DNA from: an uncultured virus (IMG/VR IMGVR_UViG_3300005674_000175)
Lineage: Duplodnaviria > Heunggongvirae > Uroviricota > Caudoviricetes
Strand: one strand, 5' to 3'
Virus record (IMG/VR): IMGVR_UViG_3300005674_000175
Length of the DNA stretch: 64,000 nucleotides
The notes beneath the pieces are model-generated. The model ran no database searches. It had not been told where the DNA came from and was given only the letters and a program-made list of their open reading frames with translations. Numbering within the stretch: position 1 is the first letter of the stretch; each line of letters opens with the position of its first letter. The position numbers were made by a program, and so were the translations under genes. Positions 3,801 to 42,900 of the stretch are shown in pieces.

Positions 3801-6800
3801 TGTCGCTGCAACTTCTTTCTTGGCTGATTTTACAGACCAATACAGGAAGTTTGACATTGTTCTTGGAATGCCTCCTGGAAATGGATTTAAGATTAACGAA
3901 ATAATCCCGTTCAAGGGCAATATGTATGAGAATGGAGATTTCTATCAAAAGTTTTATGATATCAATATAGGTCCGCATTCGATAACTTTGAATTCTGATT
4001 ATTTTGATTTCTCTAGTTTTGATAGAGATACATCTCAAATGGTTGTTCATGATATTGATAGAAACATTCTGTCCAATGGAGGTTTTGAGGATACCGTATT
4101 GCCTTATGCGGACCATACAAGACTTGAAGACGGTTATACCTCCATTGATGGATGGACTGTTTATAGAGGCGTTTCATATAGAAGAGTTTCATCTTATACT
4201 CCGCCAAGCACTGTTGGTCTTTCTCCTTCGATTGGAAGAAGTTGGGTTGAGGTAAACGGACAGCTAGTTGGTAATGTTGCATATAAGGGAGCTATTTATA
4301 CTAATGTTGCTACAGAGGTTGGAAAAACATATTGGGTTACGTTTGACTTGTCAAATAACCCAAATAACTACACTCAAGGATCTGTTGTAACGAAGAGAGT
4401 AAGGGTTATAGCTGGTCCTACAACAAAATTGTTTACCACAACATTAGAAGCAACTGGCCCAACTCCTACAAACTGGAGAACAGTATCGTTTAAGTTTGTT
4501 GCTAATTCAACATCTACTTTGCTAAGATTTGAAAATGCATCTAACTTCTTCAATGATCCAAAAGACTTCTCATCTGGTCCTCAAATAGACAACGTAGTGG
4601 TTGTTCCTGAAGAAAGTTTGAATGATGAGTTTTCCTCATTTACTACGGCAGAAAGCCTTCTTGTTGATCAACAAGAGTTTGATTTGAATTATAGCCTAAA
4701 TGCAACAGACAACTTTACTCAAATACCTATTACTGTTTCAGATACATATCAAAACAAGAATCCTGACTTGTTTATAGACAAGAAGAATAAGTTCCATGTT
4801 GTATGGCAATCCAATAGGGATGGATATTGGAATATATTCTATGGAGGAGCAAGGGTTAGGGGTGTTCCTTTTAGATTTGATTCTCAAATAACGGATTCAG
4901 GAAGTAATAGTGTAAATCCATCTATTGCGGTGGATGGGTTTGGCAGAAGAGTTATTGTTTGGCAAGATGATAGAAATGGGAATTCTAGTATATATTCTGC
5001 TGTTTCTAAGGTTGTTGATGATGAATTTTCGGATATGTGCAAACAAGATGAAATTGATGAGTTTATATACAGATGGAACTCTGCTATAGACCCATATTTT
5101 GATCCGTACACAGCAAATATAACACAATTGAACTGCGAGATTGGGTTTAGTTTTTCTGCGCCAAGTACAAATCCATTCCACTTTAGCCTCTGGTTGTATG
5201 AGGACAAGGAATATACAACTCTATACAAGAAGATTTCTTCAAGCGAAAGCATAGGCGGTTGGCGAGTTGATAATGTTCAGTTGGCATATAATGGCCTTTC
5301 CGCAGTTGAAGATACCGTTTATCAAGTAACATATACTCCTTCTTATGAAGATGATATAAGCGGAAGAGTCTTATATGTTATTGTTGAATACGAGATAAGC
5401 TCAACTATAGTTGATATTGTAAATTCTTCTAATGTAAGAACTATTTTTGCTTATGACGGATTGAATCTAAAATCTAATAGGTTTGAAAATACAGAAAATG
5501 TTACTGCAATTTTTGAATCTGAAATGAGATCTCCTATTGCTGTAGACCCTCAAGATCTTAGTGATATAAACTATCAGCTATTTAGCGGCGTAAGTTTTGA
5601 ATATCCTCTTACGGAATTGCCTGGAGTTGAAGTTGATCAAAAGATAAGAAGCGTATTGCTTCATTATGATCCAGCCGGAGCCTCTGGTAATGTAAACGCT
5701 GTGGTTAGATTCAATTCGCCTATACTGGCTGTTTTCGTTAGCAGTTCTAAGTTGATTGCAACTAATACTGTATTTGGTCATTCCGGTGTTACATATCATA
5801 CAACGGATTCCACCGCCGGAATAGAAAATCTTGATACTCTCGTTATTTCTGCTGATAGAAAAACTATTACAATGGATTTTGATGTAAATCCTGCAATGGA
5901 TGAAATCAGGGTTATATTGTTAGATGATTCTGCATCTGTTGGTGAAAGCAATTTCGTTTATTATTGCCCATCAAAACAATCTGCAAGATGCGATGTTCGT
6001 TGTTCGTTCTCTAATAACTCTATTGTTGATAAGACTGTTCATTTTAGAGTCAGTTTCTATTCTAATCCTGAAAAAACAGATTTGATTATGTCTTCGTTTA
6101 CTCAAACTGATACGCTTAACTGGTTCTTCTCTTCATCTGATTTCCCGCCAGAAGGTCTCACTGTTCAGCCGGGACAGTCAATAGGCGTTGTGTATTCTCC
6201 TGAAATATTGCCATTTGAAATGAGAGAAGCGCAGACGGTTACTGATTATTCTGAAACTCTATTTAGACAGCCTCTTATATGCGGAGTTCCTTATAGGGTC
6301 GTTGTTGAGAGCTATAGAGATGGTTCATTCTATGTTGAATCCGAGTTTGAACTCCTTTGCCCTTGCGCTAGAACGGATGCGGATTTGTGGAGTAGAGATA
6401 AGGATCTTGATAACTGGGTATCTAGCGGTCGTGGATTTGATGATATTAGAGTTACGATTACCGACCATGAATGTTTGTTCCCGAAGGTTGTTGTGTCTGA
6501 AAATGATCTATTCTATGTTATTTGGCAAGACTTTAGGTATTCTAGGATATTAGAAAACCAACAGTTTGTTTCACCAGATTATTTCATGGCATTATATGAT
6601 GCTAATGCTGATAAATTTGTATGTTCTGGTCAGGGCGAATATGATAGAAGATTGACAAGTTTTGCAAATAATGGAAAAGTTCTTTATGATGCATCTATTT
6701 TCTTAGATCCGTTCCAGAATATTAATCTAGTATTACATGATGGACAGAAGGTTTATTCTCAAATATGTAGTCTTGGTTGCGTATATGAAGCAAAGAACAG

Positions 6801-8064: not shown

Positions 8065-8094
8065 GTTTTGCTTGAATAGCATAGGATAATAATC

Positions 8095-9183
8095 ATGGCG
8101 AATCTGATAATAAGATATGGCAGTTCAAGCGAAGGGCAAATGCTAACAGATGGGCAGTCTATGTCTATTGGTTCGTTTGTTAAGGATACAGTCTTTACTT
8201 TATATCTTTTTCTAACAACCGACAGCCAAGATACCGTATATATAGCATCTGATTCTATAACTGTTGGTCAAGATGGATCTTTCAAGCAAGCATGGGAGGC
8301 TGATCCTAGCGGAGACTCTGATGGATGGGTGCTAAGCGATATTGTAAAACCGCTTCCTGTTAGTATATTTTCAGGAAAGCCAATGTTTATAAGTATTGAT
8401 GTTGATACATCATCTACTGGCAATAAGTCTATAAGTTTTCAAAGCATTACTGATGCTTCTGACCCGAAGTTTCTCTATACTTTCTATTTTACAGTAACAG
8501 AACCATCAACACAAAATCCTCAAATAAATGTCATTTACGATGGAAATTCTGTTTCGCAAGAAGGTACTGTATCTCTCGGAAGATTTGCCCAAGAATCGGT
8601 AAGTAGCGTAAATTTTGAGATATTCAACTACGCAATCCCGTCTCTTGTTATACCTCAAGATGGAATAAGTATTACTTCAATTGGGTCTAGTGAAACGGTT
8701 ACTTCTAATCCTTCATCTTCTGGTGAAGTCAGTTTGAGTTTCAATCAGAACTGTACTCTTACTGTAGAATTAGATACGCTAGAAACTGGTGATAAATCTT
8801 TTGTGGTAGTAATTTCATCTAATGATCCAGATGAAAATCCTTTCATATTTACAGTAACATATTCTGTTTCTCTACCGTTTGAATTAATCGTTTCTCAGGG
8901 AGATACAGACCTTGATGATGGATCTACATTAAATCTTGGTTCATATAATGAAAGAACTACCATTAACAAGGTTATAACTCTTGAGAATAATGGAATATCA
9001 TACGGGATAAGGGTTACAAACATATTGGTAGGAGGAGAGGTTTCTCTCGTTAATCTTCCTTCTTTACCATTTGTTCTTCAGCCAAATAATAGTAATTCAG
9101 TTCAGTTTACGCTTAGGTTTGCTTCTTCAAGTTTGGGCAGAAAAACCGGAGATCTTAGCATACAATGGGAAGTTGAGGCGTAA
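8095..9183 (+). CDS. Tandem Ig-like (choice-of-anchor D/ASH-like) domain protein
   Basis: PQINVIYDGNSV...GDKSFVVVISSNDPDENPFIFTVTY matches the choice-of-anchor D signature; about three such units. Confidence 0.65.
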   Translation: MANLIIRYGSSSEGQMLTDGQSMSIGSFVKDTVFTLYLFLTTDSQDTVYIASDSITVGQDGSFKQAWEADPSGDSDGWVLSDIVKPLPVSIFSGKPMFISIDVDTSSTGNKSISFQSITDASDPKFLYTFYFTVTEPSTQNPQINVIYDGNSVSQEGTVSLGRFAQESVSSVNFEIFNYAIPSLVIPQDGISITSIGSSETVTSNPSSSGEVSLSFNQNCTLTVELDTLETGDKSFVVVISSNDPDENPFIFTVTYSVSLPFELIVSQGDTDLDDGSTLNLGSYNERTTINKVITLENNGISYGIRVTNILVGGEVSLVNLPSLPFVLQPNNSNSVQFTLRFASSSLGRKTGDLSIQWEVEA

Positions 9184-9188
9184 TACAT

Positions 9189-10871: not shown

Positions 10872-10880
10872 TATTGGAGA

Positions 10881-12455
10881 TTGACATTGGCTATTCTATC
10901 TGTTCTATATAAATGGTCGGTTCCAGATACATTCGATATCAATTTCGAATGGAGAATTGTCTCTCCGGCTGCTCCTACGCAAATTCCTACGCTTCTTACT
11001 TCTGGTCCGCAAAATGCAATTAATAGACCAACTCTTGTTTATCCGAATGGCGGAGAAGATATTCTTTCTAGAGAGGTGGAAGTTCTTTGGAAGGAACCAG
11101 TTCCTGCGTCTACAGACAGTCTTGATGTATGGTATGAGATTTACTTTACTGAAAACTATGATTACATGACAGAGCCAGATTGGAAGATGATTGCTTCCGT
11201 TCCAACTGGTATCGGGAAGTATTTATGGAAGATTGGTAATAGCATAAAGAGCAGTAACGTAAGAGTTGGTATTCGAGCAGTAAACGGAAGGGGAGAAAGA
11301 AGCGAGATATCTGTATCTGCTGCATCTTTCTCTATTAGAAAGTCACTACCGATTGCTCCATCCGTTTTGTCTCCAATGCCAAACTCTCGTTATGGAACAA
11401 GTGTCAAGTTTGTATTTGATGATTCTTCTGTTATAAATAGCTTTTCGCAAAGAGCAAAGTATTACATTTACTTTAGTTCATCAAAAGCAAGCATTCCATT
11501 TACTCCTGTTGCGCAAAAAATACCAGTAGGTTCTGGCCCTATAATATGGGATACATCTTTGCTTCCTCCATCAGATGATTATGTTATAACGGTATATCTT
11601 GCTGACGATGATGGGAACAAATCGCAAGAAGTCAATATTAGAAACGTTTCAATCATACAAGAGGGCTTTTTCCTTGTAGATACAAAGCCTCCTACTGGAT
11701 ATATACAGATAAACGATGCAGATCAGTTTACAAAGAAGCTAGACGTATCTATAAAGATGTACTCTTATGATGAGACAACAGACGTTCATGCTATGCAGTT
11801 TATTGAAGAAGCGACTCCTGATGAAATCATTGGACCTCCAGAATCATTTGCAAATGTAAAGTATTGGACATTGAGCGATAGCGATGGAGAGAAGGTTGTA
11901 AAAGCCAAGTTCCAAGATTACGGCGGAAATAGAACTGGTTCTGAAGAGAGAACGTTTAGAACTCTTTTTGATATAGAAAACAATGATATTGCTGATATAG
12001 TTGTACAAGAATCTACCGGAGATGTTTGGCTTGCTAAGAATGGAAGCCAGCCATCGTTGTACAAGTTTTCTCCCGGTAGTTCTTTTATAACTTATGTAAA
12101 TGAAGAGATAAACTGTTTAGCAATCTTTGGGGATATCCCGTATGTATCAGTAAAGACTTCTGATAGTACGGCTTTGGTTTATAGATGGACAGGTTTTGTT
12201 TTGGAAGAAATCATAAGTTTGGATTTGATTGATTCAGAAATCATTGCCATGTATCATTTTGATAATAAGCTTTTTATGGGATGCAAGAATGGAAATCTAT
12301 ACAGTTATGATGGAGCTACGATTAGTCTTGTAAAGACTTTCTCTTCGCAGATTGGAAGGCTATATTCCGATAATTCATTGTTGTACATAATATTGAGAAA
12401 CTCGAAAATGATACAAATATATGACGGTCAAACGTTTTTGGAGATTAGCGTATGA
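10881..12455 (+). CDS. Fn3/Ig-like plus C-terminal beta-propeller protein (putative structural)
   Basis: PTLVYPNGGE...W Ig-like start; DTKPPTGYIQIND...KAKFQDYGGN Ig-like domain; WD-like blades at the C-terminus. Confidence 0.6.
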   Translation: MTLAILSVLYKWSVPDTFDINFEWRIVSPAAPTQIPTLLTSGPQNAINRPTLVYPNGGEDILSREVEVLWKEPVPASTDSLDVWYEIYFTENYDYMTEPDWKMIASVPTGIGKYLWKIGNSIKSSNVRVGIRAVNGRGERSEISVSAASFSIRKSLPIAPSVLSPMPNSRYGTSVKFVFDDSSVINSFSQRAKYYIYFSSSKASIPFTPVAQKIPVGSGPIIWDTSLLPPSDDYVITVYLADDDGNKSQEVNIRNVSIIQEGFFLVDTKPPTGYIQINDADQFTKKLDVSIKMYSYDETTDVHAMQFIEEATPDEIIGPPESFANVKYWTLSDSDGEKVVKAKFQDYGGNRTGSEERTFRTLFDIENNDIADIVVQESTGDVWLAKNGSQPSLYKFSPGSSFITYVNEEINCLAIFGDIPYVSVKTSDSTALVYRWTGFVLEEIISLDLIDSEIIAMYHFDNKLFMGCKNGNLYSYDGATISLVKTFSSQIGRLYSDNSLLYIILRNSKMIQIYDGQTFLEISV

Positions 12456-13870
12456 GCCATTCTTTCCAGAAACAAGAGATAGTGGGAACGTATGACCTTA
12501 CTTCTACGGATAAGGCATCTTATAGCCTTACTGATACTTCTGCGTTCAAGATACAGTTTGTAAAAACAGATGAATCTATAACTCCATATGTATCTGCAAA
12601 GTTTTGTGTTTTGACCGTAGAAGGTATTAAGGTGTTTGGGGGAGTTTTCCTTGATTCATCCGGCACTGAGTCTACTGTTATACAGATTCCAATAACAGGT
12701 CAAAGTATTGGAGATTTGGTTGAATCTCTTAATACATACGCTGATGTTGAAGCTGAAGTTGAGAACTCCATGAGCTTTGTTTCTTCTTTATCTCTTTATG
12801 ATACTGCGTTTACACAGTCATCTGGTTCTTGGGTGTATTTTTCTGTGGCAAATGAGGGGATAAATTCTGTTTATTCTACAATAGGAAGCGGTCTAAGATT
12901 GTTTTTGACTTCTCCAGAACCATTATCTGAACAGAAAAATGTTACTCAATCATTTGGCGGTTATACTAGTACGAATGAACTTTATGGAGGGATTTCTCTT
13001 TCTTCTGCTATGTCCGTATATGATACGGTTCTGTATCTTGGAGACTCTGTTACTGATGGATTTTCAATTGTAGATTTGCAGAAAAATGAATATGTTCAAA
13101 TAGATGATGAAATAATTCGTATCAGCAAGTGGTCTGGTGTTACAGGATATATTTCTGAAAGGAATGTTTATGGAACTCCTTTTAGAATGCATCCTAAAGG
13201 CGCTATTGTTAGAGAACTAGTAAAGAACAGTTTTTTCGATTTGAATTTTGGTACAGAAAGAAAACAATATCGTTGCGTAGTTATAAAAAACATTAACACA
13301 AGCGAAATTGCGAAAGATTTGAAGGTATTTTTCGGTCTTAATAGTAGAAATAACTTATCATACACCAAAATTGCAATAGAAGTACCTTCTAGCGATTACT
13401 ATGCCGGTGCATCATCCTCTTCTGGTATAACTGCTTTTTCTGTTGCGAGCTTGGTGGGAGCTTTCCCGGACAATCATTTTGTAAACGCTCCAATAGCTTT
13501 TATATCTGGAAGTAATAACGGACAAAGTAGGCTTATCAAGTCTTTCAATTCAAGTAGCGGCACTATAGAATTAGATGAAAGGTTGCCAAACTACATCGCG
13601 ATAGGAGACCAATTCTATATTGATACAGCCCCATCAAGCAGAACAAAATCCGGAGGTAAAACTCCGACTGGAGCGAATATCTCAGAGTTTTTTGATGCAA
13701 ATGACGAAACTAATGCTATCTCAATAAATGTTGGAGGCCAAAGAGCAAGCGGAGCAGATTTGAAACCAAATGAAGCTATTTATGTTTGGATAGAACGCTC
13801 TATTTCAGAATCTAATGATGAGTTTTTAGATAACAGATTTGCTTTGAGCTTTATCTATAGTAGGGTATAA
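12452..13870 (+). CDS. Putative phage tail/baseplate-associated protein
   Basis: DNHFVNAPIAFISGSNNGQSRLIKSF...LPNYIAIGDQFYI resembles the beta-barrel segment of phage tail-hub proteins; YRCVVIKN and AIYVWIERS motifs; ATGA overlap with the upstream gene. Confidence 0.45.
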   Translation: MSHSFQKQEIVGTYDLTSTDKASYSLTDTSAFKIQFVKTDESITPYVSAKFCVLTVEGIKVFGGVFLDSSGTESTVIQIPITGQSIGDLVESLNTYADVEAEVENSMSFVSSLSLYDTAFTQSSGSWVYFSVANEGINSVYSTIGSGLRLFLTSPEPLSEQKNVTQSFGGYTSTNELYGGISLSSAMSVYDTVLYLGDSVTDGFSIVDLQKNEYVQIDDEIIRISKWSGVTGYISERNVYGTPFRMHPKGAIVRELVKNSFFDLNFGTERKQYRCVVIKNINTSEIAKDLKVFFGLNSRNNLSYTKIAIEVPSSDYYAGASSSSGITAFSVASLVGAFPDNHFVNAPIAFISGSNNGQSRLIKSFNSSSGTIELDERLPNYIAIGDQFYIDTAPSSRTKSGGKTPTGANISEFFDANDETNAISINVGGQRASGADLKPNEAIYVWIERSISESNDEFLDNRFALSFIYSRV

Positions 13871-13871
13871 A

Positions 13872-14939
13872 ATGGAACAAATTTCTCTGAACATATTAGA
13901 GACCGACTATGTAAGATTTCTAGTTAAAGATACTGCTAGGATTTTCTTGAAGTTTGAATCAGCTCCTTTGATTGATGAAATTAGCGGTCAAGTCGTTATG
14001 CTTTCTGGAGAACAGTTTCCATTTCTTGAAAAAACAGATTATGGAAATGGAATAAGACTAAAGCCGAAGTCTTCTCTTTCTACTCCTTTGCTTTTGCAGA
14101 ATACGTCTGAGTTCTCTATTGGGTTTTGGCTAAGACCTCACTGGGTAACGCCAACGATTAGCCCATTAACTAACCTTCCTGTTTATTATAGAATGGCATT
14201 GTTTGATAAGTCTGCTTTTTCTTATTCAAGCTACGGAGGATTTGTAAGCTCCTCGAACGGAACATTTGTCATATATGAGGAGAGTAGAGAAGATGGTTTC
14301 AATGTAATGAAGATTCAACTTACTAGTTCTGACAAAAGAACTGTATCTGTTGAAACGGAAAGATACGAAACTGGTAAGATGCATCATTTCTGGATAGCAT
14401 ATTATGGACCGTCTAGGAGACTTGAGGTTTACATAAACGGAGTGCAAGCAAAGTTGTTCTCTGAAGATGGATTGGCAATACCTCAAAGCCTTAACTCGAA
14501 CTCTTACTATTTCAATATCAATAACTCGGCTATTGGGTATAGCGCTTTGATAAGAGCAAATGCCGGATTGCTTGATGAGCTTGTTGTTCTTAATTCTTAT
14601 GTTGTTGATTCTAAGACTTTGGCTAATGTTATAAATCTTGGAGTTGAATACATAATAGATAAGTCTTTACTATACAAAGATATTGTACACAAATGTTTTG
14701 CATGCGATGACCCAACCTCTTTAGGCGTTACTTCTGTTCTTAGTAATGGAAAGAACTTCTATGCAGGAAGGAATGATGGAGTTGTGTTTAGAGGCGATAG
14801 AACTATGTGGCAGGTTAGAAGAGATTTTGCCAATAAAGACGAAATTAAGTTTGTGAAGAAGAATGTATTCGATTCTAGTTCGGAGATTAGTGTTGAAGAT
14901 GGGGCTTTAAAGCTATACAAGGCTTCAGTTAGGATTTGA
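13872..14939 (+). CDS. LamG/concanavalin A-like lectin-fold protein
   Basis: FSIGFWLRP...HHFWIAY...LEVYING...GLLDELVVLN follows the LamG-like pattern. Confidence 0.7.
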   Translation: MEQISLNILETDYVRFLVKDTARIFLKFESAPLIDEISGQVVMLSGEQFPFLEKTDYGNGIRLKPKSSLSTPLLLQNTSEFSIGFWLRPHWVTPTISPLTNLPVYYRMALFDKSAFSYSSYGGFVSSSNGTFVIYEESREDGFNVMKIQLTSSDKRTVSVETERYETGKMHHFWIAYYGPSRRLEVYINGVQAKLFSEDGLAIPQSLNSNSYYFNINNSAIGYSALIRANAGLLDELVVLNSYVVDSKTLANVINLGVEYIIDKSLLYKDIVHKCFACDDPTSLGVTSVLSNGKNFYAGRNDGVVFRGDRTMWQVRRDFANKDEIKFVKKNVFDSSSEISVEDGALKLYKASVRI

Positions 14940-14944
14940 CATAA

Positions 14945-17900
14945 ATGGCTATTTCTATAACGAGTGTTTTGGTCAATAACAAAGAAACGCAACAAGGAAC
15001 AGTGATTGTTCCTCTTGGTGCGGTTACTATCAATTGGGACACACAAACAACTTCTCCATCTATAAAGCAGTTGTCATATGAAATTAGAATAGGAAAGCAT
15101 ACTATTAATTGGGGAGGTAACGATTATATCCCTGATATATTAAAGCAGCCATATGCTAGAGACAGGTCTCAGTATTGGAGATTGAAGCAAAAATTCGTAC
15201 AAAGAGGAGATACCTATTACGGTCAAATTCGAGTCAAGGATACGACTGGAGAAGAGAGCGAATGGGTTAAGTTTTCATTCATTGTAAATCGTTTGCCGTT
15301 TTTAACATATGCAAAGATAACTCCTGAACAACCGTCTGAATCTACTGATTTGGAGCTTGATATTGGTTCTTCTTCGGAGTTTGTTTCTATAAAAACAAAA
15401 TGGATGCGTAATGGTACGCATTATTCTCAGTTTGATAACTATCAGAAAATTTCTAAAGAATATTTGAGGTATGGCGATACTTGGTATTGCGAAATTACGC
15501 CTTTTGATATGCTTGAAAATGGTCCAACTATTACGGCTAAGTCTGTGAGCGTAACGAAGTTGTCTCCTGAAGTTGATTCTATAAACATATTACCAATTAA
15601 TCCTAATGTAGATGATATTCTTGAGGCAAGTTATTCTATCAACGATCCCAATACGCAAACAATACTTGTTGGCGATAAGAGTCAAATTAGATGGTATATA
15701 AATAATGAGCTTATAACTGAAGCAAATGATGAAAAGTTTGTAAAGTTTGCCTTAAAGCCAAAAGATGAAGTATATTTCACAGTAACTCCTAGCGATGGGA
15801 TCTTCTATGGGGCCACAATGTCCTCTAGAAGCGTTATAATACAAGATCCTGGATTTAGGGTTGTAAGTCTCAAAACCGATGGACTTGTTGAAAATCTGAG
15901 CGTAAACAGCGTAAATCCGACTATTGAATGGGATGTTATCTCTCCATTTGACAGATCCAGCAGGTATGCTCATATAAAGATTGGCACCGCTCCTGGCGCT
16001 GACAATATTTATAACAATATCATAGAGACTTATGATAATAAGTTCACGATTCCTGATAATGTTGTTCGCAGAGGCGTAGATTACTATGTTTCCGTTGCAA
16101 CTAATGACATTAAAGATGCTTTTACAAATTATGAAATAGGAAGATTTAGGGTTGCTGGTAATCTTTGGGAAAGAGAAGTTAGTAACGGGACTGGATGGAC
16201 AATGGAGTTGTCTATAAGCGTTAGCGGAAGCGGATATCAGAGAATGTCCATTTCTGATGGCTCTAAATTCGCAGAAATAAGATTCTATACTTCTAAGATT
16301 GAATTATTGCTTGGAAAGAGCAGTATCAAGGTTTTTGATACAGACGTATCTGTACCAAAGAATATCATAATCATTGGAAAGAATAGCGATATAAAGGTTT
16401 TCTCAGAGAACAATCTAATTCTTGATGGAACTTCAGAGTTTATACAAGCCGCAACAGAGAGGTTTATAGAAATAGGTTCTAATGGAGGCTCCGAAGCCAC
16501 TGGATTTGTAAAGAGAATAGCCTATAATGTTAGCGGAGATTATGAGCCAGGCGCTTCTGTATATTCAGATATAAGACTAGAAAAGTTTGTTAGCTTTACA
16601 GGAATGTCTATTGCTGATGTTACAGAACACGAAGGAGATGTTCTTGTTGCTGCAAATAGTTTGAATCAATCAGAAAGCGGTAAGATATTCAAAATCAAGG
16701 AAACTGAAAAACCCGTTCTTGCGGCAACGGAAAACGCAGACGTATTTGGAACAAAGATAAACGCATTTGCATTGTCTCCGGAAGAAAACATACTTTATAT
16801 CGCTCATGGATATGGCGCAAGCTTTTTCGATAGTTACTTTATTCCCAAATACGATAGCGACTCTTTGTTTGTTGCAGGATTTGATCCATCTATAAACTTC
16901 TGGGAATTAACAAAGACAACCCCATTCAATGCCGCTTCATATATAGAAGAAGGTCTTGTAATTGATACAACTGTTTCAACGAGACAGTCTGAACTTTCTC
17001 AGTCATCTACCGAAGTTATTTCAACTGTTCATACAAATGCAATATCATTTTTCTCTGTTTACGATTCAATATTTAGCTATGATTTCGATATTCAAATAAC
17101 TAGTGATACTCTTACGATAAGATTGTACAACTCAGATACAGTTGTTTATACTACAACAACTGTTGATAAGAGTATTAGCGATGTTGTTGAAGAGCTTAAG
17201 GGTCTTGTTGGTTCGGAAACCTATTTCTTTGCTTTGTTCTTTGATATCTTTGTAACAGAAGCCAATATTGGGCCTCAAGCCGCAACGAGACTCGATGTAA
17301 TAGAAAGAACTCATCTTTTCCCAACTCTTAATTTGTCAGGCTATTATCAGGTTATAGACCCATATAACCCTTCTCCTTATGGAACTCTTTCTACTGGTAA
17401 ATGGTTCTACTCTCACAGAAAGAAGGGAACTCCTTGGTTTGAAAGAGTTGATAACGCAAAAGGATGGACGTTGGACTTTGATTTTAGAGTTGATGATTTC
17501 GAAGATAGCGATACTCCTGCAAATACTGGTAGTCCAAAGGGAGTTGGATTCTATGTAAATGATGGATATTACTACAATAACATATGGTTCTTGCCTCAAG
17601 AAATTATATTCGAAAGTTCCAATCAATCGTTTGTGTATGATACTACAGAAATGACAAGTTATAGGCTTGTTGGCAAGAAGTCTAGAATGAAGCTGTATGG
17701 AAAGAAAGCTTCAGATCAGCAATATAGCATTATCGCTGATGTAAACACGGAGTCAGTTGCTACTAATCAGGGAAATGCAGGAAGACCCTCTGTTGTTACA
17801 GATTCTTCTGGAGTTTTGCATGCTGTATGGCATGATGATGGTAATGGTATAAATAGAAGGCAGATTTATTACAATACATTTGTGAACGAGCAATGGGGCG

Positions 17901-20900
17901 AACCTGTTTTGATTGTTTCGGATGGATTTAGCTCGCAAAATCCAAGTATAGCAATTGACTCTCTTGATAATGTATATGTAGTTTATGAAACAACAAGGGC
18001 AGACTACACAGATATTGCTGTTATAACTAAGAACTCGGCAGGGTGGTCAGAGTCTTATCTATTAACATCTAATCTATATGATTCTTTCAATCCAAAGATT
18101 GCAATTGATAGCAAAAATAATGTTCATGTTGTTTGGGAAGATAATAGATACTCTCAATCTCAAATATTCTATTGCAGAAGGAACGCATCAAATGGGCAAT
18201 GGGAAAGCCAGTCTTTTGGCGGAACAGATGCGCAGGTAACTTCAGAAGCTGTTGGAGCTAAGAGGCCTGACATTACAGCTAGCAACACTAGTGTTTTCTT
18301 GTCTTGGACGGCATTTGAGAGAAATGGTTCATCTTCTATCAAAATGGCTATTTATGATGATGGAACAAAGACATGGAAATCAAAGGCTAACGGAGGTATA
18401 GATTTCGCCGTATCTGGAATCGGTTCGCTTAAGGCGGATAACTCAACGATATGCGTAGATATGAAGGGTCAAGTTGTCGTTGTATGGCAAGACGTTGTTG
18501 ATTACAATATACAGCTATTTGGAAGACATATCAACCCTAGACTTGTATTTGCTAAACCGATTGAACAACTTACGAGCGGAGATTATGATTCCACTCATCC
18601 TAAGAGCGGACTAAATACGAGCAATGGCGACGTATATGTTGTATTCGAGAAACAGCAGGAAATGATTGTTTCTCCGTATGATGCTTATGTTACAAGAGAA
18701 AATGATGTAAGTTTCCAAAGCCCATCAGTATCTCTTTTGAAGTGGGATGCTGCTTTGCAGGTCTGGTATAGCAGTAATCAAAGCAGGCCAAGCCCATATA
18801 CTCAAAGTTTTGATGTTAACTTTAGTGTTATATTACCAAGAGAGTTTTTCAGGCCAACGATTCCTGATAGGTTCAGCGGGCCTCTTCATATTTTGGTTGA
18901 AAGTTCGTCTGTTTCAAATAGCGGAGAGGTTTTGCCAAATCAAGACTTCTTTATTCAAACCAAAGATATCGTATATGATTATTCGTTTGTTCCTACATAT
19001 TCAGTGCCGTCTCATGAAAGCGGAGTCTATGGAGAGCATTCTCTTAGCGGCGTTCTAATGAGAAAGGAGCTAAGGTTTGGAGACTTCTCTGACAACTTGG
19101 CCGCTAGAATCGTAATAGGAAGATTGAAGTATTATCTTTCTGATTCTGTTACTCCATTTGGTATAAATCTGGTATCTTCTGCTACAACAAATATCCCCAA
19201 GACAGAAGTTCTTTCTGTTGCGGCAAATAATGATGGAGATTCTTGGATAGGAACTCCAAATGGTCTAATCTATTATGACAGAGAATCGAACCAGGCTTAC
19301 ATGCTTGACTCTGCCAACTATAACATCAATGGATTGTCAATAAATTCAATTGCATTTGACAAGAAGGCTAATATGTTCTTGTCAACGTCTTCTGGAACGT
19401 ATGCAAGCTCAGACCATTCCTATTTCTTCAAACTCAACGGCAATTTACCAGAATCTCCAATAGCTATTGATATAGATAGCACGGATAAGATGTATATCGT
19501 ATCTAATGAAGGACTATATGTTGTTAAACTTAATAACATATACAATAGTCTTGTTTTGACTAAAGAGAATGTATCTGAAACAAGGGTTATTGATGTTGCG
19601 GATAGCGATATTACTAAGGTTGATGAATCTTCCGGTTTGCCAACAAACATTCTTACTTCCGTAAAGGTTGATGCATCAGGTGTTGCATGGATTGGTTCTG
19701 AAAGCGGGCTTATTCGTTATTCTGATGGAGAAATAACGGTATTTACAACTGCAAACGGATTGAATTCCAACAAGGTTAATGATGTTGCTATTAGAAATAC
19801 AGCCATACGTTACATTGCTACAACTGCCGGTGTCAATAAAATGGTTGGTATTAGTATTTCTTCTTTGAACTTTGATAACACCAACTCTCCTCCATCAGCA
19901 AAGATACAGACAGGAATAGGAGATGTAAATCTTCCAGTGTTTATTAATGCAAGAGCTATCAAATGGAGAGATCCAAATATTCTATGGATAGCGTCTAGCT
20001 ATAATGTTTTCCAAGTAACTTTTGTTGAAGAATCTTTTACCACGGAAAAGACAGAAATCACAAAGTTTACAAGTCGAGACTTTACTTTGAATCCTGTACA
20101 GCCTGCTAGAAATGATGATTTGCAGACGTTCAGATTGATAGGTTTGGATAACAAGCAAATATCTGAAAATGCAGTATTTGAAGTTATAATTAATGGCAAT
20201 AGAATAACGAGAGGCTATTCGTTCTCTCCAAAGAACAAGCTTATTAAGTTTGATTATCCATTGTCAGAAACTGATATTGTCAAGGTAAATGTTCGTTTTG
20301 ATATTGAGAAGATTGGCGATTTCGCTCAGAACAAGGCGCAACAGATAGCAATAGGAAATAAGTCAACTAAGCTTGAAAAGGTTCTTTCTTCTGGCGGAAG
20401 TATATTTGCTCAAACTGGTGGAGATATCAATACTCTTCAGATAAATGATTCGCAAAGCGATTTACCATTTGACAAGATTATTCTTGACAGAGTTCCTCCA
20501 AGAGGCAAAATAACTCTAGGAGACAGAAGAGAAAGAAATGTTTTTGAAGTGAATGTCTCTCCTCTTGAAGATGATATAGAGGGAATATTTGATGATGTAT
20601 CCGGCATTGATAAGATGGTGGTTTCTAACTTCACCAACTTTACTTCTGATGGAGAGGTTCCTATTGAGCCAATGGTCTTTACTCGTTTCTTGCTACATAA
20701 TGTAGGAGAAATCTTTGACTCAGTAACAAGACAGTTTACTTTTGTCAATGGAAAAGGAAGAAGAATGCTTTCTTACCAGCCTGTTGGCGGCAATCAGGCT
20801 CTTCTTGCTGGAACCGCTGAGCCAGCGAATGTTTATAAGTACAACTGGAACTCGCAGACATGGGATTTGATAGATACCCTTGATATAGTTGATGGGGTTG

Positions 20901-27753: not shown

Positions 27754-27756
27754 CTA

Positions 27757-32235: not shown

Positions 32236-32247
32236 CGGGAATTGATA

Positions 32248-33912: not shown

Positions 33913-36900
33913 CATTAACTAAAGCATCCGTTTTTATTAGAACTGTTGGCTCAACCGATTCTTCGGCGGCTTTTTCTATTCCGCAAACAGGATATGTTGC
34001 TTTTGATGCGGCAAATTTCTATAAGCTTGAACAGGGCGATCCTTCTGTTGTTTTTGAGGTTGATGCAAACGGATCATATGGTTCGGGAGCATTGCATGTA
34101 GAGCCAATACAGTCAAGAACAAATTATCCAGTTATAACATATCCTGTTATTGCTGAAAAAGCAGGCAAATATAATGTTTTCATAAGAGTAAAAACGGGAA
34201 CTTCTGTTAGTAGTTTTACGTTTGATATTCTTATAGATGGATTTTCTTCTTCTACCGAAACAAGAACTGTTACTCCTGGAAATTGGTCTTGGATAGAGAC
34301 AACAATAGTTGTAAAAGATGATAGGAGGTTTGATCTTTCTATAAAGCCGCAGACGGCTGATTCGTATATTGATTCGTTCATAATAACATCTGAAGCGATT
34401 CCTTCTTCTATTGAATATCAAAGCAAGTTCTTGACTTTGCATTTCAGAATGTTTGAAATGAATAGTAGCATGCTTCCGGGTAGTTCTTTGCCTATTTATG
34501 GATTCAAAACAACAATAGATGAAATCAAGGATGATAATTGGTATAATTTTGCTTTAGACCCATTGCCGGGTTATTCATCCATATCGTTTGACATGCATTA
34601 TGTTGCTTCTCTTTTTGTTTCTGGAATTAGCGATAGCCTTTATCTTATTTGGGATTATGCAAGTAATGAAGAAACGGTTTTTGACCCATACAATGTAACG
34701 TGTTCTTTGTTGTATGATTCTGAGTCTGAAGAATGGCTGCTTGATTGCGAAAAAAGCTATGCTATCAAATTCTATTCGCATAGAGATGCTATAGACGAAA
34801 ATGCATGCAAGATTATCGTTCCAGCTTCTGCTTTGGCTACGAATAGGACTCAAAAGTTTGATACAGCAAGTCTAGAGCCGTTATTCGCGCAGACAAAGAT
34901 TGCGACTGTAGACAACGAATCAAATAAGGTTGAACTAAGCCTTCCGGATAGGCTTTTGTCTGTTGTTATGGACCAAAGCGGTTCTATGAGCTGGAATGAT
35001 AGTCAAGGACTTCGCCATACTCTTACAAGAAGAATGGTTGATAGGCTTGAGGCGACATACCCCGGCGAAGTAAAATACAATCTTCTCAGCTTAGGTTCTA
35101 CGCCTATTAAGATTAACTTCTTTGCTGTTGTAGAAAATGATCAAATTAATACAAGCAACACTTCAGCGGTTGCTACTAGCTTTTTTGCTGACCAAGAGAG
35201 CGGATATGCTGGTGTGAGAATCATAAGAAAGAAAGGTTCTTATCCAACAGGCCCCCTTGATGGAGAAATTGTAACAGAAGGTTTTGTTGAAAGAGCCTTC
35301 GATGATGAACTTGAAGAGGGAGAAGAATACTTCTATGCTGCTTATACATTTGATTCTAATCAAGTATTCAGTAACGGAAGATTTCTAACTGCAACTCCAA
35401 GAGTCAAACTCCCGCCTCGCGGAGTTGGAGGATTTACTTATAGGGTTATTACTGGTTCTGGTATAAAGAGAGATGAAAATACTATTGGATTGTGGCATCT
35501 CAATGAATCAGTAGGTCAGTCTGCTTACGATTTTAGCGACAATCCTATAACTCTAAACTCGTCTTTTGATAACCTTGTATGGCTTAACAAGAATGATGTT
35601 CCTAGCGGAATAAGCGGTATCCGATTTGATGGTAACTCAACAAGAATATTTGGATACGACGGAGATGGTAAGCTTGTACAAACTAAATACACATTCATGG
35701 CATGGGTGTATCCGTTTGATTTTGTAGACAAAAGAACTATTATATCTAGAGAGACCCCATCTTTAGATAAGATGACATTTAGGTTTGGAACAAATACTGA
35801 TGGCACTTTGTATCTTACTATGGATGACCTTACTTTTGCTTCTTCTTCTGGAACTCTTACAAGTAATGCATGGAATCATGTTGCAGTAACTGTTGATCTT
35901 GATACTTTGACGGCAACATTCTACATTAACGGAGAAGCAAGCGGGAACGGATCTGTTGCAACTCTTGGATTCCATAGCATAGAGTCTATGGATATATACA
36001 TAGGCGGCAAGACTTCTTCTTTCTTTGGCAAAATAACAGAAGTTAGCGTACACGATGTTGTTAGACCTTCATCTTATATCTATTCTGCATCTATTGTGCC
36101 TGAAGACTGGAATGATAAGGTTTTGGATAATGGCGACAGGATAGTTGCTTTGAGATTTTCCGTTCCAGATGATTACAATTTCCCTGGCGGAAAGGTTTTG
36201 ATTATAAGGAAAGAGGAAGTCGGCTCTGGCAATTTCGAGTACGTTACTCCTACAAATTCTGATGGAACCGTTGGGGATCCGGTCCTTGTATTCAATGGTT
36301 TTGGAGAAAAGCCATCTAATGAGACTGATGGAGTTGCTGTTTATAATGAAAACGCTTCTGCGGGAGAGCATACTGTTATCCTTCCATATGATTACGTTCA
36401 TGGAAGAGTATACGACTTTAGAATATATTCTCAAAGCGCAATAGGTAACTATAGTCTCAGTTCGGATTCTCCAATACTTTCTATAACTATTCCCACTTTT
36501 GCTAATAGAGATGCAAGAAATGCGGCTATTTCTACTCCTTTTGTTAATAGCGTTGGAAATGTTCAAATTAGGGCAGGAAATCATAAGTCATATTTGACAT
36601 GGAATGCTATAAATGATGATGTTACAGATCAAGTTTTGGTTTTCTGGTCCGATACAGGCCCTCCTATAATCAATAATGATCAAGGCGTTAGCTCTTCAGC
36701 AATGCTGGTTTATAGCGGCAATCCATCTGAGTCTTCATTTGTTGATAGAAACATAGAAAATGAAATTGTCAATTATTATGCAGTTATTGCGGCTGATAGA
36801 TATGGCAATTTTTCCGCTCCTGTATATGTTTCAACAGTTCCTCTAAATAGCGCTGACGAAACCGATATCCCGTTACTTGAAACAAAACAGTTTAGATATG

Positions 36901-39900
36901 AAGTTGTAAATGAAAATGCTATTAGTTTGGCTTGGGACGCTCCTGTAAAATTCCAAAAAGAAATAGAGGCATGGTTTGATCAAAGAGTTGCATTGTATGC
37001 CCAAATTACTGATGAGTACGGAGCTGCAATCGCTGATTCTAGCCGTATTAAGTTTGATGCAAAAGCAACTGTAAGTTCCGCTCAGTTGGCTGAGGATGTT
37101 TTTGGAGAGACAATAAATTACACCACATTGACTCCTGAAGCTAAGAACTGTTTTGCTTTATCATCATCTGACATGGGCGATGGTTTTATTAAGGGTATAT
37201 TTAGGATGACATCAGATCAGGATGTCTTGTCTGCTATAAATACTCTATCTGCAACAATTTATGTTTCATACACTATACCAGATAGAGAGAATCCAAGCGT
37301 AAATGTTTTTGAGTTTACATCTCTTCCTATTCAAATTGAGATGCAAAATCCGTTTACAATGGAAATGATAAACATTGGAGATAACACGACTAATTTTGGA
37401 ACTAATACGTCTATTGGTCTAAGAAAGAAATCAAGAAGGAGAAGAAGTTCATCTTCATCCGTAGCCGACCCAACCGTTGACAATAATCCGATTGTTGGCG
37501 CTGATATGGTCAAGATTCTTTGCAAGCAAACAGTTCCTCTTGATAATCAAGAGTTTATTTCAACTGGCGGCTTATTGTTTGACCCGAATAAGTTCAAAGA
37601 GTTTGATGGATGTTGGATAAGAAGAACAAGGCCATTTGTTGCAAGAGTGGTTGTTACTTATAGAGGGCAATCTCTTCCGGGCGGAGCTGATTGTAATGCT
37701 GCTGTATTTGAAGCTTCAGACCCTCAATGCGATCCAGAAGATAATAGCGATAGTAATCCTTGTTCTCAAACTGGTTCTGGAAGCTCTCGTCAACCTCCAT
37801 TTGAACCATCTTTTTCTACAAGAAGAAGTAGAGCAGTTCAGCCTCCTGCAACGTCAATCCCTCTTAGAACTGGTTTGCAGAGATTGAATGATGGAACAAC
37901 AAGGCAAGTAAGCTATGCTGATATTCCGCTAAGAGCGCCAAGAAGTCCTCAAGCTGTTATGCTTTTTGGCAAGGTTTCTTTCAATGGATATTCTTCTAGG
38001 AAAAAACAGTATATAGTATTCGAAAACATACTAAGAGTAGAAACAACTATTGAGCCGCCAGAATCTAACTGTATTGATGTTTCTGAGCAAAGAGCTAATG
38101 TTTACATGATAGATCCGGATAGTCCTAATGTAGATAATCCTAGAAAGATTCCGGTTCCTAATCAGCAAGTAGTAAGATGGAGTTTGAGAAAGGGAAGAAA
38201 TTCAAAAGATAGACCATTCTATTCTTCTGATAATGTTCCAACAGGTCCGGGAGTATTTTCGTACACAAGAAGCGGTACAGCAAGGAATGTTTTCTTTGGT
38301 CCAGCTTGCGGAGTTACATGGGAGCTTTATATCCCTTGCCCTGGCAATATCATATATCTACCAGAAATGTATGCAATTAAGGCCTCTGTCGTTTATGATG
38401 GATTAAGCGCATTTGAAGAAAGACCAGCTATTATTTATCCGCCTAGCTTTGGAGGAAGAGGCTTTGGTTCTAGATTCCTTATGGATATGCCTCAGTATGT
38501 AAATCCTCTTTATGCTGATGGATATGATCTTGTTAGATGTACAATATATCATGACCCAAATATTGCGGGAGGCACAACTGCTGGATGTTTTAGACAGTGC
38601 GCCGAAAATGCTAGTAGGCCAATATTCGTTTTGGATAACGGTCAAATTGTTGATATAGAGTCTGGTAATGATTTTGAGATTCTTCATGGAGAAAATCTAG
38701 AAATTGTATATGATGAAGATTTGGGAGAAAATGTTGTTAATAATGCAAATCAATCTATTGGATTTGCTCAGATTCCTCTTTCGCAAGAAGGAAATACAAC
38801 TGTTTTCTATTTTAGAATCAATAAGTTTTTAGGAAGGCCTCAATCATCTGCAAGCAGCGATGATGGTAGTGAAAACAATCAAACAGTTAACTCTTGCGAG
38901 TGTATAGAAGTTCCGCCTGGTCTTGCAAAGAAGAAAGATCTTTCGATTGTAAACGGTAGGACTACTATTAATTTCAATGGAGAAACAAGATATCTTCGAG
39001 GTGGCGGAGACTTGAAGACTGGCGTTCCTCCAACAACAATAGATCTCAAAGAGCCTCTTGATATTTTTGTTGTTGATATAAGAAGAGATGGACAGTCTGT
39101 TAACAAGATTCTTTGCGATGGAGTTGCTGTTCACGAGTTTGTTCTTGAAGTAAAGTTCAAGGAGAATCCGGTTCCTAATGGTACGCCAGTATTTCTTACT
39201 GTGGCCGGTAAGAATCCTGAAAAGATAATACTTCAAAGCGACACAATATATACTTCTAAAGCAGATCCTGATGAACAAGGAAGAATAAAGAGTTATGCAT
39301 CATTCTTTGTTGCTCCATTTGGACCGGAATCTGCTTTTGAAGCACAAGTTCAAGCAGAAACCAAGTATGATAAGAGGGGCGATGTTGAAAGAAGTATGAC
39401 TTGTTGTGTTACAATCAAGTATGACCCATCGCAGAAGAAAGAAGAAGAAGTTGTTGATAAGCCAGAAGGCGAAATAAACAACGTTTTTAATGCAAGTCTT
39501 GACGTATATGATACCTATAATGATACATGGGTAACAAAGTCTTCTATGCAACATCCAAGAGGCTGCTTAACTCTTAATTGGATGCCAGAAGCTTATAGTG
39601 ATACACTGTACGCTATAGGTGGACTTAATGGCAAATCTGTTTTGTCGTATAATGAAATGTATGATACAGCTTCTGATATTTGGGTTTCTAAGACATCAAT
39701 GGGAACGCCAAGATTTTATCATATGTCAGCAGAGGACGGCAACTACATATATGTCTTTGGTGGTATAACTGTAGATGGTTCTGATTTGCTTGTTACTAGC
39801 TCTGTTGAAAGATATAATGTATATACTGATACATGGGAAGATTTGCCAGACATGCCAGTGTTTGACCAGAATACATATGGCGTTGCCTTGGGAAGTTGTG

Positions 39901-42900
39901 TTGTTATAGAAGGAAAAGCTTATATTATTGGAGGTATAAGAAAGATTGGGCAAAGCGGAAGCATAGATGCTCTAAATGATAGAATACTTGTATTTGATTT
40001 TGATACTTTGACTTGGAGTTGGAGCGATGCGTTTACTGGTGGTGATTTGACGCTTTATGCAAGGGTTTCTCCGTTTATATTTGCAGATTCAGATGGAACG
40101 AGAATTCATGTTATTGGCGGCGCTGTTCCTGGAGAATTGAATGCAGAGACAGGAGAACAGCCTCTTGAGTTTATAACTGATACCTTTGTTATAGACGTAT
40201 CAAACTTATCAATATCTTTGGATGATTACTTGTTTGATCAGATTCCTATTCCAAGATATAGAGGAATGTCAGCAAGCATTGTTGATCATCACTATTTCTT
40301 AGGCGGAACAAATTCTAAATCTCAAGTTCTTAATCTTGTTGATCGTATTGGAGAAGATTCTCCAACATATTCATATGATAGTATTTCTAGAATGCTTACT
40401 GCTCGAACGGCGTTCGGCGGAACAAGTGATAACTGGAGATATTTGTATGTATGTGGAGGAATTACGAGCGGAAGGCCAAAAGGTTTCTTGCAGATTAATG
40501 CTTCTGTAAGTCCTTCTAATATACTTTTGGATGGAAAGCAATCCGCTACTGTTTCTATTGAATTGTTAAATGATGTTGGAGAGAGGCCAACACAGTCTAT
40601 TAGAGTCCTTGTCCAGGGTGTTCTTCTGTTCCCTGATTCAACAACAACAAGTAATGAAACAAGCGGCGGCGATAATTCTCAACAGCAATCAGAAGATTCT
40701 GCTCTTAGAGATGCTCTTGTATATCCTGTTGTGTTTAGTTCTAATGACTTCTATATTTATGATGGAATTGGTTCTACTGTTATGTTACCAAGAGCAGATG
40801 ATATACTCAAGAAAATTTCCGAGATAAAAGAAAAGCTTGGCATTACAGATCAACAAGTTGCAGGCGAAGGAGGAAGCGACGGCAATACGACCTTGAAGAT
40901 AAATGAGGGAGAGGTTAGAAATCCTTATTCTATTATGGTTCGTATAACTGTTTTGGATAGCTTCTTTTACGGACAAACAGTTGTTGATGTAAAAGATAAT
41001 CAAGATTCAACTCAAACTCCTCCGCCAGAACAACCTGCCGAACCTTCTCCAACAGATCCGTCTCCGTCTGAACCAACAAATCCAACTGAGCCAGTTGTTG
41101 AGTTTGAGGGCTGTAGGAGCGTTGAGGGAAGTCAGACCGTTCCGCCAAGTGATAATCAGCAAACGAATGACCCCGGTAGAGATAATGAAAATAATCAAAC
41201 AATAGATCAGTCCTTGAAAGATAAAGACAATCCTGTGTTTGATCTAAATCCTCCTCAAACTCCTCAACTATCAAGTCCTACGGTTTATTATTTCAGCGAT
41301 ATAGAATGGATACCGCAAGTCGTTGTTCATGTAAACAACGGTGAATATTCTGATATGATACAAAGTCTATCAAGAATTGAAAATGAGATTCCATTTGGTG
41401 CATCTCCTTTGTATGATGCTCTTATCAAGAATGCCGAAATCATGCTTGATGAAGACCTTGATAGATATGTTAAGGTTATATATCTCAATACTGATAATGA
41501 AGAAAATTTATCTATTAACACTATAGATACGGCTATACAAGATATTCAGGCTATAGATGGCTATGGCAAGACCCCTGTTATAACTAGTAATTTCTCTGTC
41601 GTTTTCCCTGTTACTCTTTCTTCTCTTGTTGCTAGAACAGATACAGATTCTCTTGAAAAGATTGCAAGCGAAACTGGAGGACAAAGCCAGACGGTTTTGG
41701 ATGCATCTTTTGTAGATGAAGTTCTTAATAATACCATAGGAAGAGTTGAAGGTTCTATTGGTTGGGGTCTCTATGAGTGCGTTATTGATCTTGGGAATAT
41801 AAGTATCATAAATGCTATAACTTTAGACTACGAGCTTTATCCTAATACAGATGGAAACTGGAAGATATCTACTAGTGATGATGGATTTAACTATTCAGAT
41901 TACAGCGATGCTTTCAATCCTAATACAGAAGTTTCGTTTACCAATGTAAGCGGAAGATTCATCAAGTTTAAGGTTAATCTTTTGAGCGGTTTGAGTTCTT
42001 ATATTGAAAATGAATACGACCTTATCCCGACGCCAGGAGTTCCTGCTCTTACGGGAATAAACATTCAGTATAGTGTTCCTACTGAAAGCTTCATATATTT
42101 CAATAATCATACAACAGATTTTAGTCCTCAACAGATTGCTGTTTCTGTATCAGCAAATAAACCAGACTTAAGTACGATAGAAGTTGGAGCAACAACGAGT
42201 AGTTCGTATAACTGGAAGGACTACTATAGTGGTTCTCAACCTTATGTTGATAGGTTTGGAAAGATCTTTATTCCAATACGTTATGAGCAAGAGAATGACT
42301 CGTCTCTTAATGAATCTTTGGAAAATATAGATGGATTCATGTGGAGAGCAAAATATGGCAAGTGGGATGTTTCGTCGAGGGTTACAATCCTTGATGAAGA
42401 TCTAAATACGGTAGATCCTGCAACCTACGCTGTTTATCCAAATGAAGGATTTATAGTATTCAACTCTAAAAAGGTTGGTTCGTTCTTTATATCTATTGAG
42501 AACGCCGGCAATCTAAGACTTGGAGTTAGAATACTCAATATGGATTCTAATAATCCGGTTATAATTGACGGTTTAGGATATATGTACAACACGAATGTTT
42601 TCTTGCCTCCTCCTCTATCGCAAAGACCTCCAGTTGTGTCTGACTTTAGAGTTATTCCTTCCCAGCTTACGCTTTATCAATCTGTTGGCCTTACTTATAA
42701 ATTCTTTGATATCAATCAGAGACAAGAAGACAAATCTCAAACGCAGATTCGTTGGTATATTAATGGAGTTGAAATAGAGTACCTAAGAGACCTAAGAGAG
42801 TGGAATAACATAAACAACACTAATGATCCTATATGGACTTATGCCTTCTCGTTTAGGCCTGATGAAGTTCCTGCTGGAACTAGCTATGAACAGTATGCAA

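Follow-up and report, generated by a model that had tools for sequence, protein, structure and literature searches.

Three giant proteins, P0001, P0002 and P0003, encoded in a 64,000-nucleotide stretch of DNA from an uncultured virus of the class Caudoviricetes (IMG/VR record IMGVR_UViG_3300005674_000175; the whole stretch is referred to here as the window) contain domains that are interrupted by the insertion of other whole domains into their loops. The nesting is supported for an HFRxxFY repeat of P0001, a lectin-like domain of P0002, and a von Willebrand factor type A (vWA) domain of P0003; at least one independently supported nesting is therefore present in each giant protein. It is likely for an Ig-like domain of P0002 and an Fn3-like domain of P0003. 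The best explanation, with a probability of about 0.82, is that the giant proteins are adhesin-like and have grown partly by insertion of whole domains into loops of smaller hosts, which would give a branched chain. A sequence-only reading of the window had proposed all five nestings from short motifs shared by intact and interrupted copies. The motifs lie where that reading placed them and in frame with the three long open reading frames (ORFs), with the exception of the start of the interrupted Fn3-like domain, given as position 35411, which is two nucleotides out of frame (residue 501 begins at position 35409).

The vWA domain of P0003 is divided into two halves by an insert of approximately 2,050 residues, rather than the 2,080 first proposed (Table 1). 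A 181-residue piece of the N-terminal half around the DQSGS motif (residues 355–359) of the metal-ion-dependent adhesion site (MIDAS) matches positions 3–52 of the 107 positions of Pfam family VWA_2 (E value 0.0032, 18.5 bits). The C-terminal halves of 19 orthologues include two with weak VWA_2 matches (best E value 0.0011), and a profile built from these 19 halves, A8, retrieved 186 representative proteins among 1.84 billion. In a Pfam scan of 17 shorter representatives, five matched VWA or VWA_2, all C-terminally in the profile (starting at position 32–78), and one of the five, P0282, exceeded the cut-offs (VWA 34.4 versus 23.8 bits, profile positions 32–169; VWA_2 32.2 versus 27 bits). Since the N-terminal half corresponds to VWA_2 positions 3–52 and the relatives of the C-terminal half to VWA or VWA_2 profile positions 32–169 and 51–106, the two halves map to complementary parts of one family.

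The family search with P0003 provided 38 homologues with 22–74% sequence identity. The motif D[QNEH]SGS is present in all of them, and the block of the C-terminal half, composed of FGxSPxYDA, IYxNTDNEEN (FVLTDGEEN in the five most distant proteins) and TGGQS, in 36. Residues D355, S357, S359, S2499 and D2529 are invariant in an alignment of 36 sequences that extends down to 25% identity. From the vWA consensus we take these five positions to be of the MIDAS type, and the equivalence of S2499 and D2529 to canonical metal ligands rests on the same assumption. S2499 (in FGASP) and D2529 (in NTDNEEN; LTDGEEN in distant homologues) are part of the interface predicted to form with the DxSxS segment. 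The distance between the two halves is approximately 2,050 residues in P0003 and approximately 2,900 residues in the distant homologues P0036–P0040.

The packing of the two halves was predicted from residues 338–412 and 2452–2618 of P0003, provided as separate chains that were each cut from the 36-row alignment. The predicted complex has an interaction score from aligned errors (ipSAE) of 0.79 (0.76–0.79 in three runs) versus 0.01 for the best control; a value of 0.79 is attained by 116 of 157 solved complexes and by 2 of 215 mismatched pairs. At least 91% of contacts are common to the runs, and the predicted local distance difference test (pLDDT) value of the partner is at least 74. The interface on the N-terminal half comprises residues 346–381 and 388–408, and strand contacts are predicted between residues 349–353 and 2522–2526, and between 390–394 and 2472–2475. 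The predicted contacts fit the vWA topology, in which strand 1 lies between strands 2 and 4. As a model, the complex suggests that the two segments resemble two parts of one vWA fold, and is not a demonstration of binding or of folding in cis.

Two adjacent ORFs together make up the P0003 orthologue at 8 of 12 distant loci (L051–L057 and L061), an arrangement that adds to what had been read from the window. ORF A, which encodes 1,922–2,081 residues and is represented among the homologues by P0034 and P0035, has the MIDAS half close to its N terminus. ORF B, encoding 975–1,060 residues, carries the motifs of the C-terminal half (FGxSxxYD in five and TGGQS in seven of the eight loci). The boundary between the ORFs is at one point in all eight loci, inside the insert, at the equivalent of approximately window position 40500 (residue ~2200 of P0003). 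ORF A has its own stop codon in seven loci, with a start codon no more than 10 nucleotides away. Both vWA halves are thus retained after gene fission within the insert.

The two-gene form bears on two other explanations of the split vWA domain. The halves might complement each other in trans, with the N-terminal half pairing with the C-terminal half of another chain or protein, and so provide an assembly joint for dimers or fibers. Complementation between molecules must work in the clade in which the halves are encoded by separate adjacent ORFs, and the complex prediction gave its high score to halves treated as separate chains. However, the halves belong to one chain in the window and in at least 28 homologues, which favors closure in cis entropically. 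Pairing in trans is considered unlikely, on data that do not separate it from pairing in cis. It is far less probable, to the point of being hardly credible, that the halves are decayed relics of a contiguous domain, which no longer fold together and whose function has been replaced by the interrupting material. Neither half of P0003 attains a Pfam cut-off, as might be expected of relics; however, few stretches of the family are as well conserved as the two halves, even at 22–25% overall identity, with all five MIDAS-type positions retained; both halves survive gene fission, and, the two-gene forms aside, neither half has been lost from any of the 38 homologues.

The lectin-like domain occurs in P0002 as one contiguous and one split copy. 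A hidden Markov model (HMM) of the intact copy (19 sequences, 141 positions) matches the region before the insert in 67 of 69 family proteins, at profile positions ~3–92 (independent E value (iE) 6.9e-12 in P0002); the two remaining proteins begin downstream of this region. The intact profile was aligned by hhalign to the pre-insert part over columns 3–109 (probability 98.9, E value 2.7e-17) and to the post-insert part over columns 98–140 (P value 1.9e-4). In a sliding control of 82 segments, the post-insert segment was the best outside the intact and pre-insert regions, with a score of 27.1 versus 20.2 for the next. Residues K1374–S1382 of the post-insert part are invariant or nearly so. The split of the lectin-like domain thus holds at the level of profiles, with boundaries essentially as first drawn. 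The insert appears BNR-like from its repeated motifs and from a match to Pfam family BNR_4 below the cut-off (20.5 versus 27.3 bits), and its propeller fold is putative; an hmmsearch comparison of the region with the PDB gave no relevant match. The 69 relatives of P0002 were compared by BLAST coverage maps, and the BNR-like region is kept in every homologue that covers it. Approximately 35 of 68 P0002 homologues, with lengths of ~1,900–2,300 residues, start at a position corresponding to residue ~808, precisely at the interrupted copy of the lectin-like domain. In the phages with these short homologues, the N-terminal 800 residues of P0002 (window positions 14945–17360) match a separate upstream ORF.

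The first HFRxxFY repeat of P0001 is interrupted in its last hairpin. P0002 contains two intact repeats, and their HMMs match residues 1452–1538 (HMM positions 6–93 of 105, iE 2.2e-11) and 1734–1806 of P0001, and the hhalign alignments to repeat 1 (E values 3.6e-16 and 6.3e-20) both end before the last strand. The post-insert segment NFVYYCPS, in which C1720 is invariant in the A9 alignment, takes the position of YSFIESC and FELLCPC of the intact repeats, immediately ahead of the strand that opens the next repeat. The insert is present in 24 of 25 P0001 homologues. By contrast, homologue P0136 lacks the equivalent of residues ~1531–1709; its repeat is contiguous with clean junctions, and RVLYATVRAE is separated from VFSFYCPS by 14 residues. 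The ~179 residues missing from P0136 bear out the proposed insertion of ~180 residues. The insert has no Pfam match, and an ESM Atlas search with it provided only unnamed clusters of low recognition value.

Repeat 2 is contiguous in the window and uninterrupted in 18 of 25 P0001 homologues, whereas the other seven contain an additional ~190 residues before its last two strands. Pfam scans of four of these seven inserts identified Laminin_B in P0126 (43.0 bits), P0128 (48.4 bits) and P0134 (29.6 bits), above the cut-off of 22.4 bits, and below it in P0131 (17.3 bits). The inserts in repeats 1 and 2 are distinct; therefore, the same small repeat has accepted two inserts at two loops. The natural variation among these homologues shows growth through insertion, or the reverse process. 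The DUF642 region of P0001 (window positions 4066–4602, residues ~1087–1265) is cleanly absent from P0135 and P0136, in which both its flanks are conserved; it may be a tandem module or a further loop insert.

The Ig-like domain has a contiguous copy in a separate ORF and a copy in P0002 that is interrupted by a propeller. An AlphaFold2 model of P0002 residues 1835–2265, calculated from a 19-row alignment, has a pLDDT of 88.1. The insert is predicted to be a complete β-propeller, with 28 strands in seven four-stranded blades, and is structurally similar to solved propellers. The pre-propeller part forms strands at model residues 21–27, 32–38, 54–60 and 81–85. A 10-residue strand at model residues 393–402 (block pLDDT 90), outside the 28 strands of the propeller, carries the YLKLIDRAGNE signature, of which Y2231, K2233, L2234, D2236 and A2238–E2241 are invariant or nearly so. 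Alignment of the intact Ig-like profile to the N-terminal flank by hhalign gave a P value of 6.3e-5 over 40 columns. The contiguous Ig-like domain matched no Pfam family, and Pfam scans of the 19 members of the alignment found propeller families and no Ig family. The pairing of the flanks around the propeller would complete the host domain.

In P0003, a LamG domain is located between the candidate first strand and the second strand of an Fn3-like domain. The model of residues 415–875 (23 rows) has a pLDDT of 85.9 and a predicted template modeling score (pTM) of 0.75. The insert matches the LamG HMM (Pfam PF13385) above the cut-off and has a predicted jelly-roll fold. It is preceded by a 9-residue strand (model residues 93–101, block pLDDT 91). 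The segment after LamG was aligned by hhalign to neighboring Fn3-like domains with an E value of 1.1e-10 and a P value of 3.8e-4; the latter alignment begins at position 21 of the intact profile, past the first strand, i.e. at the second strand. No Pfam fn3 match was found in residues 495–870. Each of the 22 orthologous loci whose frame is intact keeps the arrangement. Because this nesting lies inside the vWA insert, the architecture would have three levels, with LamG in the Fn3-like domain and the Fn3-like domain in vWA. In both P0002 and P0003, the inserted folds are complete and the flanks follow the order of the intact copies, which fits the proposed nesting. The Fn3-like host of LamG has an additional ~30 residues between two strands (window positions 36200–36300, P0003 residues ~765–795) relative to the neighboring copies, as read from a gap in the hhalign alignments.

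Table 1. Positions of the giant ORFs and of the interrupted and intact domains in the window (for the two-gene example, positions in locus L052).
Feature	Positions	Strand	Description
Giant ORF P0001	808–8064	+	2418 aa; DUF642, repeated Asp-box-like motifs, two HFRxxFY repeats
HFRxxFY repeat 1, contiguous part	5137–5397	+	P0001 1444–1530; ends at penultimate strand VLYVIVEYE
Insert in last hairpin of repeat 1	5398–5934	+	~179 aa; P0001 1531–1709
Last strand of repeat 1	5950–5973	+	NFVYYCPS; P0001 1715–1722
HFRxxFY repeat 2	6040–6366	+	P0001 ~1745–1853; contiguous in window
Contiguous Ig-like domain	11679–11930	+	DTKPPTG...KFQDYGGN in ORF 10881–12455
Giant ORF P0002	14945–23221	+	2758 aa
Contiguous lectin-like domain	16163–16537	+	P0002 407–531
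Split lectin-like domain, pre-insert part	17417–17764	+	P0002 825–940
Region inserted in lectin-like domain	17765–19045	+	~427 aa; repeated xxDxxGxxHVVWxD motifs (BNR/Asp-box-like)
Split lectin-like domain, post-insert part	19046–19159	+	RKELRFGDFSD...RLKYYLSD; P0002 ~1368–1405
Split Ig-like domain, pre-propeller part	20486–20713	+	DRVPPRG...; P0002 1848–1923
Seven-bladed β-propeller insert (predicted)	20714–21616	+	P0002 1924–2224
Post-propeller strand	21617–21670	+	Domain-end signature VYLKLIDRAGNET; P0002 2225–2242
Giant ORF P0003	33909–43682	+	3257 aa
vWA N-terminal half	34935–35132	+	P0003 343–408; strand 1, DQSGS MIDAS motif, helix 1, strand 2
Multi-domain insert in vWA	35133–41282	+	~2,050 aa; Fn3-like domains, LamG, Kelch propeller, others
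Candidate A strand of Fn3-like host	35427–35453	+	P0003 507–515
LamG/ConA-like jelly-roll insert (predicted fold)	35466–36119	+	P0003 520–737
Rest of Fn3-like host, strand B onward	36138–36488	+	P0003 744–860
vWA C-terminal half	41283–41738	+	P0003 2459–2610; FGASPLYDA, VIYLNTDNEEN, TGGQS
Two-gene example, locus L052	2308–8424 and 8421–11546		ORF A and ORF B

The nested architecture has to be weighed against an ordinary beads-on-a-string organization, in which the separated halves are chance similarities of motifs and each flank belongs to a complete domain of its own. Several results count in favor of such an organization or against the preferred explanation. BLASTP comparison of intact and split copies detected no significant similarity; the case made from the sequence therefore rested on short motifs and needed testing, and it is profile methods that detect the paralogy in the lectin-like and Ig-like domains. 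The flanks on the C-terminal side are short (8–40 residues), and their matches are weak for the Ig-like domain (hhalign P value 0.038) and not significant for the last strand of repeat 1 or for the A strand of the Fn3-like domain, which is too short. In the Ig-like and Fn3-like cases, the models give the folds of the inserts, and the 50 listed matches from VIA-align fold searches with them are all neighbors of the inserted domain and none of the host; it is from the flanks that we infer the pairing of host strands. The vWA N-terminal half of P0003 scores below the VWA_2 cut-off of 27 bits, and the C-terminal half has no Pfam match and, on its own, no sequence match in the PDB. Searches of the PDB with profiles of the halves by hmmsearch gave vWA-type proteins only at non-significant levels, and the non-significant entries from the vWA searches were TRAP (4hqk, E value 1.2), 9no5 (E value 0.052) and CLCA1 (6pyo, E value 0.59). 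Since vWA is a much-solved fold, the score of the predicted complex may come from likeness to known structures remembered by the model. The form of repeat 1 without the insert is a single sequence, P0136, from one contig; no relatives of it were found in viral contigs, and an alignment-based scan for P0001 relatives retrieved only insert-bearing forms. Among the homologues compared, none lacks the inserts of the other four domains: the BNR-like, seven-bladed-propeller and LamG inserts are missing from 0 of 68, 0 of 68 and 0 of 22, respectively. The location of the giant proteins in the virion is backed only by a weak PHROG tail-assembly match of a neighboring ORF (E value 3.9e-4).

However, the profile matches of the split lectin-like domain are collinear and complementary, MIDAS-type residues approximately 2,050 positions apart are invariant, the vWA halves form a predicted complex with a score of 0.79 when no control exceeds 0.01, a natural variant without the insert exists for repeat 1, and both vWA halves persist after gene fission. 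The beads-on-a-string organization is already disfavored for repeat 1, the lectin-like domain and the vWA domain, and is improbable as an account of the giant proteins.

In the preferred explanation, self-contained domains would have entered smaller host domains at hairpins or loops, generating the order A1-B-A2. The inserted folds, propellers and jelly rolls, have adjacent termini; therefore, a host could still close around its insert. Nested insertion would result in a branched chain instead of beads on a string, and the three-dimensional shape of the giant proteins would be branched accordingly. The metal-ion site of the vWA domain would form only when residues 343–408 meet residues 2459–2610, closing a loop of ~2,050 residues, provided that the halves fold in cis and bind metal. 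It is possible, although tentative, that the split vWA domain is a fragment-complementation clasp, whose metal site exists only once segments 2,050–2,900 residues apart, or contributed by two gene products in a sister clade, meet, and such a clasp might serve as an assembly joint or checkpoint of a giant phage surface structure. If so, it would be a naturally occurring two-gene split vWA domain.

The giant proteins are most likely virion-surface fibers or decorations, judging from their domain content. Their repertoire is of the adhesion type and includes DUF642 or carbohydrate-binding-module-like, LamG, Kelch and other propeller, Fn3-like, Ig-like and vWA domains, as well as an F5/8-type-C match in relatives; it points to adhesion that may depend on carbohydrates and metal ions. 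Whole-protein Pfam scans recognize few of these domains: DUF642 in P0001 (residues 1087–1265, 41.4 bits versus a cut-off of 27), Ig_Rha78A_N and a weak BNR_4 match in P0002, and Laminin_G_3 and Kelch repeats in P0003. The segment 3′ of the vWA C-terminal half (window positions 41763–42100, P0003 residues ~2620–2730) resembles a discoidin or F5/8-type-C domain, on the basis of a precomputed PF00754 match in one homologue and a weak match in the distant relative P0228 (E value 2.8e-4); this piece of P0003 itself has no Pfam match.

The giant genes are flanked by glycosyltransferase genes and replication genes, and the replication genes 3′ of them have strong PHROG matches to phage replication proteins. 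Every ORF of at least 196 residues in the window is on the + strand. The window matches a 494-kb viral contig with 100% identity, P0003 is on record for a contig of 505,915 nucleotides, and the contigs of relatives reach 548 kb. Therefore, the source of the window is a megaphage with a genome of approximately 0.5 Mb. No match to tail-sheath families was found in the nearest virus record, which is 73% complete. The 494-kb contig stops at a point corresponding to window position 10871 and resumes at 21992, and thus has ~11.1 kb (10872–21991) less than the window. In one 187-kb viral contig (loci L036, L060 and L071), the orthologues of P0002, P0003 and a 524-residue Ig-bearing protein are discontinuous in frame, with longest ORFs of 332 and 154 residues and high-scoring segment pairs in two frames, which could reflect frameshifts, assembly errors or recoding.

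Adhesion modules are also nested in integrins, which combine a vWA domain with a MIDAS, propellers and β-sandwiches: the αI vWA domain is inserted in a β-propeller, and the βI-like vWA domain lies within the hybrid domain, itself inserted in the PSI domain. In integrins vWA is the insert, whereas in P0003 and its homologues it is the host of ~2,050–2,900 residues that form many domains. In the adhesins of Gram-positive pili, a vWA domain with inserted short arms, or a lectin module, is grafted into or onto small scaffold domains; these grafts are far smaller and belong to bacterial pili, and their likeness to the phage proteins is drawn from architecture. Integrins and pilus adhesins may be regarded as the nearest functional analogues. 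In laminins, domain IV (Laminin_B, PF00052) is inserted within an EGF-like repeat, whereas in the scanned relatives of P0001 it is inside an HFRxxFY repeat, a host with a different fold; P0001 itself lacks it. Lp49 of Leptospira (3bws_B) combines an Ig-like domain with a seven-bladed propeller in tandem, whereas the two are nested in P0002. A literature search found no description of these giant proteins, nor of phage vWA domains that are split; the "moraphage" paper, in the part available, concerns a different lineage with genomes of up to 307 kbp (PMC12619734).

According to the accessible text of an ECOD survey (Protein Sci 2026, PMC13114784), 20% of multidomain proteins contain insertions, which are mostly of a single level but reach six levels in cyanobacterial RpoC2. 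Inserts smaller than their hosts account for 77.0% of the events covered there (medians of 115 versus 199 residues), and the terms vWA, propeller and immunoglobulin each occur zero times in the survey's main text. By contrast, all five phage inserts exceed their hosts, as is the case for only 23% of the events in the survey: the sizes of insert and host are ~179 and 100 residues for repeat 1, 427 and 141 for the lectin-like domain, 301 and 90 for the Ig-like domain, 218 and 125 for the Fn3-like domain, and 2,050 and 220 for vWA. The sequence-only reading had called the nested architecture systematic. Three of the five nestings pass independent tests; an excess over the background rate is not demonstrated, and a count of five in three giant proteins with many domains is not obviously above the rate given in the available part of the survey (PMC13114784).

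The principle of domain insertion is well known, and it is the scale in these phage proteins that is unusual. Host domains of 90–220 residues carry inserts 1.7 to ~10 times their own size, nesting reaches three levels if the Fn3-like host is read correctly, and a vWA domain accommodates many inserted domains totaling 2,050–2,900 residues and, in related phages, withstands division between two genes. The proteins provide a natural test case for the folding of discontinuous domains. They are also a warning for annotation, because half-domains that are far apart in giant phage proteins escape family scans. Finally, the nested domains hint at a possible route to branched adhesion structures in the largest phages.

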